Below, piece after piece: positions 23,132-32,238 of a stretch of DNA of 64,000 bases. The notes under the pieces were generated by a model, which was not told where the DNA came from, made no database searches, and worked only from the letters and a program-made list of their open reading frames with translations. The stretch spans positions 2,778 to 66,777 of the forward strand of contig JAUIAC010000002.1 in NCBI GenBank assembly GCA_030425545.1, read 5' to 3'. The DNA is from a bacterium (GTDB lineage: Bacteria; Myxococcota_A; UBA9042). The translations under genes were made by a program, and so were the position numbers. Within the stretch, counting starts at the first letter, position 1. Each line of letters starts with the position of its first letter.

Positions 23132-25456
23132 TCACTCGTCGATGCGCAGGTCGCGGTCGTCACGGGCTCGGAGCAGCGCGCGCAGCGCTCCGACATCGAG
23201 CGCGCCGTCGGGCCGCTGCAGCACCGCTGCGGCGGCCGCCGGTCCACGAGCGGTGCCCGGATCGGCCCCGCTGGCGGCAACCCCAGGACCTTGGGTCACG
23301 GCGGGCACGCGAGCGTCGCGTGGACGGCCGCCCTCGTCCAAGGTCGCGGCGACCAGGCGTCGCACGGCGGCCGCGCGGGCGGCCTTCGACGCGCTGGCGT
23401 CGAAGCCGATCGGGTCCGCTCCAAGCGCGCGCAAGCTGCGCGCCGCGGTGCGGCGCACCGCGGCGTAGGGGTCGTCGAGGGCCAGGGTCAGCAGCGGCAC
23501 CTGCCAGTCGCGGCCCGAGATCGCCAGCGCCGGACCCCAGGCCAGGTGCCAGGCTGCGAGGGCGCGGAGCCCCGGCTCGCCTGAGAGCAGCCACCGCACG
23601 GACGCTGCCACGCGCGTCGGTGGCGGCGCCGCCCCCTGCCCCGTGGCGTGGCCGTCAGCCGGCCTGGGTGTCCGGAAGCGCTCCGGCCACCAGCGCCCCA
23701 TGGCCGCGACGCTCCAGTCGAGCGGCCGGTCGAGGTGGCACAGGTTGCACGCCAGGGGCCGGCCTGCGGCGTGATCCGCGCTTGGATCCGGCACGCGAAT
23801 CTCATGGTCACGGGTCGCCTTGAGCAGGCTCCAGGCCGTGTTCGGCATGTGACAGCTCTGGCAGCGCGCGCCGCTGCTCGCCGCGGGATGGTGGCTGTGG
23901 TCGGCCTTCGCGCGCTCGGACGCGAGCGTCGTGTGGCACCCCACACACGCGGCGTCGCCTCGCGCGCCCGGGCGCAACTGGTCGTCGCGCCAGTGGGTGA
24001 GGTGCCCACCGACCGGCACGGCCTCGATGCGCGCGGCAGCCAGGGCAGCCGGCTGCGGATCCGTGGCCCCAGCGAGGCGCGTCGACCGGCCCGGCGCCGA
24101 GCTCCCGTCGCCAGCCACCGGTCCGACCGGGGCGGCGCCGGCGTCGTGCAGGCTGTGACACCCAGCGCAGCCCAAGGTGCCCTGCTGGTAGCAGCGCGAG
24201 CGACGCAGGGCGCTGTACTCCCGCCCCGCCACGCGCAGCCCGCCGTCCCGCCAGAACAGGCCATGCAGCGGCCACCGCGGGTCGTCGGCGTGCGCGCGCT
24301 GGTCCTCCCCGGTGAGCAGCTTCGCGTGGTCTGCCAGCGCGGCGCCGGGGCGAAAGCTGCGCCCCTGCTCGTGCACGGCGTCGAAGCGGTCTGGATCGTC
24401 GACGACCACCCCATGGCACTGGCCACACACCTGCGACCCGCGCCGGTGGTCAAGCCGACCCGGGTGGACGATGCCGTCTGGGCTCGCGCCCGCTGCGGCG
24501 CGTGGTTTGCGTGTGCCGAACAGGCGCGCGACGCGGGCGGCATAGCGCGCCCACGGCGCCCGAAAACGAGCGATGTGGCGGCCAGCGGGGCCGTGGCAGG
24601 ACTCACAGGCGATGCCGTGCTCGACCACGTCAGAGTCCCCGAATCGGGCCCTCGGCTGCGTGGTGTGGCACTGGATGCAGCTCGCGTTCCACAGCCCGGC
24701 AGAGCGATCCTCCACGGGGCCCTCCTCGCGCTCGATGTCGTGCGCCGGCTGCACAAAGATGTCGTCGAAGGGCACCCACCGCGCCGCCCGACGCAGCCAC
24801 ACCACCGGCGCCAAGGCCAGCTTGCGCGCCTCGCCCGCGGCCAGCCAGTAGGCCTGCTGGTGGTGCGAGCCGGTCATGAGCACCACCCGACGTCGCACCG
24901 GAGGGGCGTCTGGGCTCCCGGGCACCCCCAGGTCGAAGAAGTAGGCGTCGCCCTCGCGCACGGGGCGAACCACGCGGTCGGGCAGCCGCAGCGGCGCTCC
25001 GTCGAAGCGCCCGAGCACGCGCCCCGGCTCGGGCCTCTGGGTCATGGTGCTGTGGTGGGAGCGGCGCCACGAGGCGAACGCGGCGGGGTGACAGGTCCGG
25101 CACGCGGCGGATCCCACGAAGCCGTCCTCGCGGGCGCCCTGCCCCGCCACGACGAGCGGCTCGTCGCTGGGCGGCGCGCGCGGCGTCGGCGTCGGCGCCA
25201 GCCCGGCGACGGCCGCCAGGATCAGCGCGCACACCGCCGCGCCCGCGCGCCAACGGCCGCGAGCCACCGCCACCGCCGCCAGGGCCAGCGCCGCGCCCGC
25301 CCAGAGCGCCGCTTGGACCCAGGCTTCGTCGGTCGTGGGCAAGGCCGCTGAGACAGCTGCGCCGCTCCGCAGCGTGCGCCAGCCGGTTGCTTCGCTTCGG
25401 CCAAGGGGCGCGCAGGCCCAACTGCGGCCTGCGCTGTCGGCTGGCCGAGGCAGCAT
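23132..25456 (-). CDS. Octaheme c-type cytochrome with an N-terminal membrane anchor and C-terminal HEAT-like (PBS lyase-type) repeats.
   Basis: Eight CxxCH motifs: CRTCH, CIQCH, CESCH, CGQCH, CAGCH, CVGCH, CQSCH and CNLCH. The N-terminus has hydrophobic helices. C-terminal DPYAAVRRTAARSLRALG is a HEAT-like repeat. Its ATG overlaps the RND permease stop as TGATG. Confidence 0.82.
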   Translation of the reverse strand: MLPRPADSAGRSWACAPLGRSEATGWRTLRSGAAVSAALPTTDEAWVQAALWAGAALALAAVAVARGRWRAGAAVCALILAAVAGLAPTPTPRAPPSDEPLVVAGQGAREDGFVGSAACRTCHPAAFASWRRSHHSTMTQRPEPGRVLGRFDGAPLRLPDRVVRPVREGDAYFFDLGVPGSPDAPPVRRRVVLMTGSHHQQAYWLAAGEARKLALAPVVWLRRAARWVPFDDIFVQPAHDIEREEGPVEDRSAGLWNASCIQCHTTQPRARFGDSDVVEHGIACESCHGPAGRHIARFRAPWARYAARVARLFGTRKPRAAAGASPDGIVHPGRLDHRRGSQVCGQCHGVVVDDPDRFDAVHEQGRSFRPGAALADHAKLLTGEDQRAHADDPRWPLHGLFWRDGGLRVAGREYSALRRSRCYQQGTLGCAGCHSLHDAGAAPVGPVAGDGSSAPGRSTRLAGATDPQPAALAAARIEAVPVGGHLTHWRDDQLRPGARGDAACVGCHTTLASERAKADHSHHPAASSGARCQSCHMPNTAWSLLKATRDHEIRVPDPSADHAAGRPLACNLCHLDRPLDWSVAAMGRWWPERFRTPRPADGHATGQGAAPPPTRVAASVRWLLSGEPGLRALAAWHLAWGPALAISGRDWQVPLLTLALDDPYAAVRRTAARSLRALGADPIGFDASASKAARAAAVRRLVAATLDEGGRPRDARVPAVTQGPGVAASGADPGTARGPAAAAAVLQRPDGALDVGALRALLRARDDRDLRIDE

Positions 25457-31618: not shown

Positions 31619-32238
31619 GGTGCCTCCCGCGCGGCGGTGCCAGGGGCGCCCGCTCCGTCCCAGAGCATGGTCACGAAGCGACGGACAAAGTCCGCTGTGT
31701 CGGGCCCCACCTGGCCGGGCAGCTGCGGCACCCGCATCCACTCCAGAAAGACATAGTTGTGCATGGTCCCCACGAGGGCCCGCGCCACCACCTCCGGCGA
31801 GTCGGTGCGCATGCTGCCCGTGGCCACGCAGCGCTCCACCAGCTCGGTCAGCGCGCCGATGACCTGCGCTGGCGGTGGGGTCTCGCCCTGCAGCATCAGC
31901 TCCGGCGAGAAGTGCGGGTGCAGGCGGCTGCACATCATCCGCGGCAGCACGTCGCGAAAGAAGCCCACCAGGGCCAGGCCGAGCGCCTCGAAGCGCGCAC
32001 GCTCCTGACCGACGGCCACGGGGCGGCGCGCCAGCGCGACCACCTCGGTGGGGTCCGGCACCGCCATGGCGGCGAAGAAGAGGCCGTCTTTGCTGCCGAA
32101 GCGCTTGAAGATGGTGCCCTCGCTCACGCCGGCGCGCTGGGCCACAGCGCTGGTGGGAGCGCCCCGCCCGTCGGCGAGGAACACCGCGCGAGCGGCGTCG
32201 AGGATCTGGTCGTCGTCGATGGTGCGTGGTCGAGCCAT
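31615..32238 (-). CDS. TetR/AcrR-family transcriptional regulator.
   Basis: N-terminal helix-turn-helix region ILDAARAVFLADGRGAPTSAVAQRAGVSEGTIFKRFGSKDGLF. The protein is about 200 aa. Confidence 0.85.
   Translation of the reverse strand: MARPRTIDDDQILDAARAVFLADGRGAPTSAVAQRAGVSEGTIFKRFGSKDGLFFAAMAVPDPTEVVALARRPVAVGQERARFEALGLALVGFFRDVLPRMMCSRLHPHFSPELMLQGETPPPAQVIGALTELVERCVATGSMRTDSPEVVARALVGTMHNYVFLEWMRVPQLPGQVGPDTADFVRRFVTMLWDGAGAPGTAAREAP

Follow-up and report, generated by a model that had tools for sequence, protein, structure and literature searches.

A TetR-regulated RND efflux operon and a downstream octahaem cytochrome, probably a passenger gene, in a Myxococcota_A genome

We analysed a 64-kb stretch of DNA (hereafter, the window) from a bacterium of the lineage Myxococcota_A (assembly GCA_030425545.1, contig JAUIAC010000002.1, positions 2,778 to 66,777; GC content approximately 72%). 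Its minus strand carries the genes of an RND efflux pump with their TetR-family regulator and, downstream, a gene for an eight-haem c-type cytochrome. The reading that we favour, with a probability of roughly 0.65, is a standard TetR-regulated efflux operon followed by a passenger cytochrome that is not a pump component. The genes and intervals concerned, in order of transcription, are:

31615..32238, minus strand: TetR-family repressor, 207 amino acids (aa) (PF00440 TetR_N, E = 2.3e-12, 47 bits)
30173..31618, minus strand: outer-membrane factor (OMF), a NodT-type lipoprotein, 481 aa (PF02321 OEP; TIGR01845 outer_NodT, 252.7 bits against a cut-off of 210)
28800..30176, minus strand: periplasmic adaptor or membrane fusion protein (MFP), 458 aa (TIGR01730 RND_mfp, 151.6 bits against a cut-off of 94.9)
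25456..28803, minus strand: RND inner-membrane permease, HAE1-like, 1115 aa (PF00873 ACR_tran, full-length)
25343..25455, minus strand: probable non-coding spacer between permease and cytochrome, 113 nt, called as cytochrome codons 1-38 by gene callers (judged from GC pattern, homologues and structure-prediction confidence)
23132..25342, minus strand: membrane-anchored octahaem c-type cytochrome, probable start TTG 25342, 736 aa (homologue alignment, eight CXXCH motifs)

The five co-directional genes, first described in an initial annotation of this DNA, are borne out by open reading frames and by Pfam and NCBIfam family assignments. From tetR to the permease they are joined by ATGA stop/start overlaps, as that annotation reported (tetR/OMF, 31618..31615; OMF/MFP, 30176..30173; MFP/RND, 28803..28800), and a Shine–Dalgarno-like motif lies 5-8 nt before each ATGA start (GGGAGG at 5 nt for the OMF, GGGAAG for the MFP and GGAGG for the permease). 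These four genes are translationally coupled through their Shine–Dalgarno-bearing overlaps. An adaptor and an outer-membrane factor adjoin the permease, and the OMF-MFP-RND order is kept in all nine orthologous loci that we compared (9/9). Together with tetR, the pump genes form an efflux operon of the usual tripartite RND kind under TetR repression (tetR-OMF-MFP-RND).

The junction between the permease and the cytochrome differs from these three. It does read TGATG (25458..25454), as first described, and the longest cytochrome frame opens at ATG 25456 (774 aa, 23132..25456), but this ATG is probably not where the cytochrome begins. Comparison with homologues had been set beforehand as a check on the start; in alignments with 15 and then 63 homologues, these begin 'MP/MF...' opposite window residue 39, which is TTG 25342, 113 nt past the permease stop. 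Both orthologues that lie beside orthologous pumps agree (locus L082, 'MFATPPSVLELSAL'; locus L101, 'MPAPYLQPFELIAV'), as do two further homologues (P0003, 'MPDLAA...'; P0005, 'MPALSTLEALV'), and all four starts align with window 'L39-PTTDEAWVQAAL'. GC contents at the three codon positions are 0.71/0.82/0.71 over codons 1-38 and 0.79/0.62/0.88 over the remaining gene, and the third-position value of codons 1-38 falls in the lowest 2.3% of 38-codon windows in the cytochrome gene (binomial P = 0.004). In an AlphaFold2 model, the predicted local distance difference test score (pLDDT) is below 50 over residues 1-41, and the first helix starts at residue 42. Unlike the three ATGA junctions, ATG 25456 has no Shine–Dalgarno motif. 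Because the homologue starts, the non-coding GC pattern, the low pLDDT and the missing Shine–Dalgarno motif agree, we infer that the cytochrome most likely starts at TTG 25342; the two genes are therefore likely separated by a spacer of 113 nt instead of overlapping.

The alternative is that ATG 25456 is the real start, coupling the cytochrome to the permease and adding a lineage-specific 38-residue cytoplasmic extension to its N terminus. The frame is indeed open from this ATG, it is the start called in the public record (P0001, 774 aa), an upstream overlapping ATG was likewise called in L101, and no candidate start, TTG 25342 included, carries a Shine–Dalgarno motif. Nevertheless, the extension has no conserved counterpart, even in L082 and L101, is non-coding in its GC pattern, is predicted to be disordered, and is not preceded by the Shine–Dalgarno motif of the genuine overlaps. 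We consider a start at ATG 25456 unlikely, and the call is probably a gene-caller over-extension. Translational coupling of the cytochrome to the permease through the overlap, as originally put forward, is not supported: added to these points, the orthologues have gaps of approximately 30-35 nt between the two genes (35 nt in L082, about 30-35 nt to the conserved methionine in L101).

Co-transcription is a separate matter. The 113-nt spacer contains no terminator-like or σ70 promoter match, which is not by itself evidence of read-through, and its predicted fold is no more stable than that of shuffled sequence (z = -0.43). Because the genes share a strand, no terminator was found and the orthologue spacers are only about 30-35 nt, co-transcription with the pump is plausible, and read-through from the pump operon would probably account for at least part of the expression of the membrane-anchored, presumably periplasmic cytochrome.

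The distribution of the adjacency argues for a passenger. Across the window and eight other lineages with orthologous pumps (permease identity 62-77%), the cytochrome stands beside the pump in three (window, L082 and L101) and is absent from the remaining six (L100, L102/L103, L104, L105, L106 and L107). Judged by gene content, the pump clearly works without a cytochrome in close relatives. Comparison of gene orders involves the following features downstream of the cytochrome in the window:

16286..22938, unstranded: approximately 6.7 kb inserted in comparison with the nearest relatives and missing from L082 and L101
21910-22938, plus strand: convergent open reading frame, 342 aa, no family match, within the insertion
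20779-21693, minus strand: open reading frame, 304 aa, no family match, within the insertion
17309-20914, minus strand: Ser/Thr kinase-WD40 protein, 1201 aa (Pfam), within the insertion
16286-17179, minus strand: PilZ protein (Pfam), with an orthologue directly after the permease in L100
14646-16283, minus strand: X545, a TMTC/PMT_2-like GT-C protein with a TPR tail (assigned from distant homologues)
12973-14649, minus strand: GT22, an Alg9-like mannosyltransferase gene that overlaps X545 (Pfam)

L082 and L101 share the order OMF-MFP-RND-cytochrome-X545-GT22-L31-S14-metallophosphatase, and the genes further downstream in the window (X545, GT22, S14, metallophosphatase, DCC1-like and DUF5939 kinase) keep the order found in L082. 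L100 reads OMF-MFP-RND-PilZ-L31-S14-metallophosphatase and lacks the cytochrome, X545 and GT22. Among the loci without a cytochrome, an X545 orthologue directly follows the permease in L102/L103 and L104 (with a 4-nt overlap in L104), the order in L105 and L107 is RND-Polyketide_cyc2-metallophosphatase, and a convergent cyclase gene follows the permease in L106.

A neighbour-joining tree of the permeases groups the loci as (window,(L100,(L101,L082))), with (L102,L104) as sister and then (L106,(L105,L107)). The three carriers of the cytochrome thus belong to a single clade, and the adjacency does not recur independently. Cytochrome identities (53% and 47% to the window protein, 67% between L082 and L101) are congruent with this tree, and the flanking L31/S14/metallophosphatase/DCC1/kinase synteny is conserved. 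Because the carriers form one clade with congruent trees and conserved synteny, the three positive cases represent a single event; shared ancestry alone therefore explains the repeated adjacency, and selection for it is not demonstrated. The most parsimonious history suggested by the gene orders is a single insertion. The cytochrome would have entered once between the permease and X545, in the last common ancestor of window, L100, L101 and L082, and would have been inherited vertically in the window, L082 and L101 lineages. The nested L100 would then have lost it in one block together with the GT-C genes, and the approximately 6.7-kb insertion in the window lineage would have split the cytochrome from the GT-C genes.

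Searching from the side of the cytochrome gave the same picture. We collected 99 loci of the cytochrome family, reduced to 93 non-redundant ones, and searched flanks of approximately 10 kb for homologues of the window permease. An RND gene lies within this distance at 4 of the 93 and directly adjacent at none (0/93); four is about the background expected from the abundance of RND genes. The RND genes of L022 and L098 lie on the strand opposite to the cytochrome, and L058 carries MFP-RND-PhyH, separated from the cytochrome by two genes on the opposite strand. The fourth, L047 (a Polyangiales metagenome-assembled genome, 3-13390), reads RND-RND-hybrid sensor kinase-GT87-cytochrome-CorA-like on one strand with short gaps, and is an independent, looser co-directional cluster of RND, GT-C and cytochrome genes. 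The next-closest cytochromes have no RND neighbour (P0003 at L088, 47% identity; P0053 at L108, 44%; P0006 at L109, 40%), and P0003 comes from the same sample as the window. JGI metagenome contigs held only distant cytochrome relatives (30-38% identity), none of them informative for adjacency. The initial annotation had held that a cytochrome start downstream of the overlap and an adjacency that is not conserved would speak against its proposal, and this is largely what we find.

Several observations weigh against a mere passenger. The lineage is sparsely sampled, with nine pump-orthologue contexts in total. The adjacency has persisted, with short same-strand spacers, through the divergence of the cytochromes of three lineages to 47-53% identity, and at L047, an unrelated locus, a co-directional RND gene lies 3.6 kb upstream of the cytochrome. 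The choice of ATG 25456 by gene callers, and a TTG start that has no Shine–Dalgarno motif, count on the same side. Pump and cytochrome are, moreover, probably co-expressed, and this co-expression may be of functional use.

Taken further, such points describe a partnership in which the cytochrome reduces or oxidises a redox-active toxin, metal or metalloid in the periplasm and the pump expels the substrate or the product, as a TetR-inducible detoxification unit. The shared strand, the short spacers without a detected terminator, the retention of the adjacency in three diverged genomes and the co-directional RND genes at L047 would all fit, as would the promiscuous reductase activity of OcwA-type relatives (PMC6703420). 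We nonetheless regard such a partnership as very unlikely, since a single evolutionary event accounts for all three cases, six of the nine orthologous pumps lack the cytochrome, among them that of L100, which is nested in the clade, and RND genes near family members occur at the background rate. Nor do the loci with a cytochrome share a regulator, as the window has TetR whereas L082 and L101 have Usp or none, and we found no precedent in the literature for an RND pump with a multihaem cytochrome. Redox-coupled export by an RND pump that carries a multihaem cytochrome, the possibility originally raised, is not supported: the overlap on which it drew is probably an over-extension, none of 93 family loci has an adjacent RND gene, and one insertion explains the three cases among nine. 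If pump and cytochrome did cooperate, no earlier RND system would match them in having a multihaem redox partner of its own. Comparison with relatives makes cooperation unlikely, and the locus is better annotated as an efflux operon plus a downstream passenger gene. What the locus does offer is a corrected cytochrome start, a putative TetR operator conserved across orthologous loci, and an entry to a large uncharacterised OcwA/MccA-related family (at least 555 loci) with a two-helix anchor and a putatively HEAT-like tail, which merits its own study.

The GT-C genes raise a second possibility, in which the cytochrome belongs with X545 and GT22 as an envelope module, for example for glycosylation of the cytochrome or of a partner, and the pump is incidental. 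In L082 and L101, X545 follows the cytochrome within 2-4 nt, and cytochrome, X545 and GT22 are joined by 2-4-nt gaps or 4-nt overlaps, more tightly than the cytochrome is joined to the permease; all three genes are jointly missing from L100. Elsewhere in the family, a PMT_2 gene lies downstream of the cytochrome at L088, the GT87 gene of L047 ends 7 nt upstream of it, and L109 has a GT2/GT4/PIG-L cluster. In the window, however, approximately 6.8 kb, including a convergent gene, separate the cytochrome from X545, and most family loci have no GT-C neighbour. The GT-C genes also appear to predate the cytochrome beside the pump, because X545 directly follows the permease in L102/L103 and L104, where the cytochrome is absent; gene order identifies the GT-C pair as an older conserved extension of the pump operon. 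We therefore hold a cytochrome–GT-C module to be clearly unlikely. Least credible of all is an extension of the pump operon, in this Myxococcota clade, into a six-gene envelope unit (OMF-MFP-RND-cytochrome-TMTC-like GT-C-GT22) in which the co-transcribed periplasmic cytochrome would reduce a redox-active toxin or metal handled by the pump or support redox-dependent glycosylation or export at the envelope; an RND system with such a redox accessory is not known to have been described.

X545 itself had no match in Pfam, NCBIfam or PDB searches. The domains PF08409 (TMTC DUF1736), PF13231 (PMT_2) and TPR occur in its distant homologues, some of which JGI labels 'protein O-mannosyl-transferase'. 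BLASTP detected no homology between X545 and the PMT_2 protein encoded beside the L088 cytochrome. A general GT-C adjacency of the family in Myxococcota was rejected, as the neighbours are heterogeneous.

Returning to the efflux operon that we favour, the permease is HAE1-like and not of the HME metal type, the distinction that the initial annotation had left to profile searches. PF00873 ACR_tran scores 554.7 bits (cut-off 28) and covers residues 27-1043 with profile positions 10-1020 of 1021. Among NCBIfam models the best is RND_permease_2 (510 bits against a cut-off of 1250), followed by RND_permease_1 (356 against 1250) and the HAE1 model TIGR00915 (329 against 940); the CusA/CzcA model TIGR00914 reaches 272.5 bits against a cut-off of 701. 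Every named subfamily thus scores below its curated cut-off, which makes the permease HAE1-like, and not a curated HAE1 member. The closest solved structure in a PDB search is Escherichia coli MdtB, followed by the MexB, AcrB and MtrD types. An Asp-Asp pair is readable in transmembrane segment 4 (TM4; 'GIVVDDAIVVGEN', 'VVDDAIVVGEN'). In AcrB, the proton-relay residues D407 and D408 lie in the context VDDAIVVVEN, and we take the window motif to be the HAE1-type proton-relay motif, not an HME signature. The permease belongs to a very large family (7977 database proteins matched it at E <= 1e-100). Its C terminus (window 25456-25640, minus strand) is a disordered low-complexity tail of approximately 70 residues, acidic and His-rich, with a GADSH-GADSH repeat, and the tail varies in length among orthologues (1066-1174 aa in total).

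Because the permease is HAE1-like and proton-driven, the substrates of the pump are, on this sequence evidence, most likely amphiphilic or xenobiotic compounds. The operon resembles HAE1 systems (AcrAB-TolC, MexAB-OprM and MdtABC, with AcrR/MexR-type logic) in its full-length ACR_tran permease, TM4 Asp-Asp pair, adaptor, NodT-type outer-membrane lipoprotein, gene overlaps and upstream TetR gene with palindromic operators. It differs from them in scoring below the curated cut-offs (510 against 1250 bits), in its OMF-MFP-RND order, in the long acidic, His-rich tail of the permease and in the extension of the operon in this clade by non-pump genes (cytochrome and/or GT-C-like). With the HME exporters CzcCBA and CusCBA it shares the tripartite build, and its MFP weakly matches the CzcB/CusB-type barrel-sandwich; in contrast to them, the permease falls far below the TIGR00914 cut-off (272 bits against 701) and has a DD motif and not DFG-DGA-VEN, and the locus has no metal-sensing regulator.

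Control of the operon is suggested by two palindromes in the divergent intergenic region upstream of tetR:

32325-32344, unstranded: TetR-operator-like palindrome GTAAGTG-N6-CACTTAC
32370-32389, unstranded: TetR-operator-like palindrome GTAAGTG-N6-CACTTAC

These are the only matches to GTAAGTG-N6-CACTTAC in the window, and they flank TTGACG, a -35-like hexamer upstream of tetR. A palindrome scan of the window found no second TetR operator near the cytochrome. The same palindrome lies before the tetR gene of L102/L103, L105, L106 and L107, and TetR orthologues with 37-42% identity occupy the same position in L102, L105, L106 and L107; in the four loci that lack TetR (L082, L100, L101 and L104), it was not found in the scanned regions upstream of the pump genes. 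A TetR helix–turn–helix protein with palindromes in its own promoter region fits a local repressor acting at putative operators. The palindrome pair is likely a conserved TetR operator and the operon likely autoregulated and TetR-repressed; pump transcription would be driven from a promoter overlapped by the two sites.

The gene that diverges from tetR encodes an 1815-aa Dicty_CTDC protein that also has an RCC1-like propeller. In all, three large secreted-type Dicty_CTDC proteins are encoded in the window (579-5783 and 32374-37821, both plus strand), and similar giant Dicty_CTDC/NHL proteins lie beside the orthologous pumps in L102, L104 and L105.

The cytochrome is an eight-haem c-type protein, as first proposed, with CXXCH motifs at residues 119, 260, 284, 344, 430, 504, 532 and 570 (774-aa numbering). 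All eight are invariant or nearly so across an alignment of 64 family members, as are six further histidines (H135, H294, H437, H520, H523 and H551), the C-terminal helical domain and the terminal Glu. The proposed membrane anchor is supported by two N-terminal hydrophobic helices (about residues 45-65 and 69-90, or 42-63 and 69-86 as delimited in the AlphaFold2 model with a Kyte-Doolittle scan) separated by a short RGRWR loop. The AlphaFold2 model (mean pLDDT 79.9, predicted template-modelling score 0.80) places these two helices before a beta-sheet domain (156-229), a haem-binding region and stacked C-terminal helices (618-705). The proposed C-terminal HEAT-like repeats stand in part: a helical-repeat domain is supported, and HEAT-like designed alphaRep proteins match family profile positions 510-639 weakly (E = 0.003-0.02; Foldseek probabilities 0.2-0.6), but Pfam HEAT had no match to the cytochrome at E <= 0.01.

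Both sequence and fold place the protein in the NrfA/MccA/OcwA superfamily. A family profile search retrieved OcwA of Thermincola potens (6I5B) at E = 8.2e-24, NrfA at about 4e-12 and MccA at 3e-8, together with OmhA and cytochrome c554; Foldseek returned OcwA (E = 2.8e-12, target-normalised TM-score 0.55) and MccA (6e-5), each with probability 1.00, and homologues of the cytochrome have precomputed matches to Pfam Cytochrom_C552. CXXCH motifs, conserved distal histidines and this similarity together make it a superfamily member. It is not an NrfA: all motifs are CXXCH, TIGR03153 NrfH scores only 17 bits within the cytochrome, and no NrfH, NrfBCD or MccCD partner gene was found in the window.

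With OcwA (6I5B), a nonahaem outer cell-wall cytochrome, the window protein shares the NrfA-superfamily haem core, conserved His-His motifs and the extra beta-sheet domain common to OcwA and MccA. It differs in having eight haems and not nine, at 15% identity, a two-helix anchor in a diderm host as opposed to a Gram-positive surface, and a putative HEAT-like repeat domain at its C terminus in place of a three-helix bundle. Multihaem packing motifs link it to MccA and NrfA, as does the beta-sheet domain for MccA, whereas the CXXCK catalytic motif of NrfA and the CX15CH motif of MccA are absent.

Two His-His motifs outside CXXCH, SHH (197-199) and HxHH (520-523; HSHH in the window), are conserved in the family. 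In OcwA, two catalytically competent haems with open coordination positions are lined by His-His motifs (PMC6703420), and OcwA-type relatives can promiscuously reduce nitrite, hydroxylamine, Fe(III) and shuttles (PMC6703420). By analogy, the SHH and HxHH motifs are suggestive as candidate catalytic pockets, and the family may act catalytically, beyond electron transfer alone. The cytochrome is probably an independent oxidoreductase or electron-transfer protein, with a periplasmic location predicted.

The family to which it belongs is widespread and uncharacterised. At least 555 loci were confirmed by tblastn in GTDB species-representative genomes, from Planctomycetota, Verrucomicrobiota, Acidobacteriota, Myxococcota and other phyla, and we found no description of this octahaem family in the literature, including octahaem proteins with HEAT repeats. 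Its sole recurring neighbour is a four-helix membrane protein of approximately 150 aa encoded directly downstream, for which a hidden Markov model matched 45 of 110 sequences (approximately 40%; 109 fetched loci plus the window). Examples are:

L049, 11761-12279: four-helix partner
L053, 11815-12285: four-helix partner
L109, 9929-10366: four-helix partner

This protein, which was not found in the window, L082, L101 or L088, is a probable membrane partner of the family. Its gene often overlaps that of the cytochrome, and the protein has conserved His residues ('LAHAHGSL') and no Pfam or NCBIfam match.

Beside the other Myxococcota members stand varied genes, among them those for FtsA/FtsZ, a lipase, a sulfatase, a kinase and a further cytochrome. 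At L076 (8378-9778), a multihaem MtrC-like/c554-like protein is encoded 4 nt upstream of the family cytochrome, and at L088 (3-2222), it is preceded by a protein that joins a beta-propeller to a cytochrome c domain of one or two haems. Elsewhere in the window, eukaryote-like domains typical of myxobacterial genomes occur in a Kazal-type protease-inhibitor protein (49826-51406, minus strand) and in a protein with a CAP/cysteine-rich secretory domain (52424-54451, plus strand).

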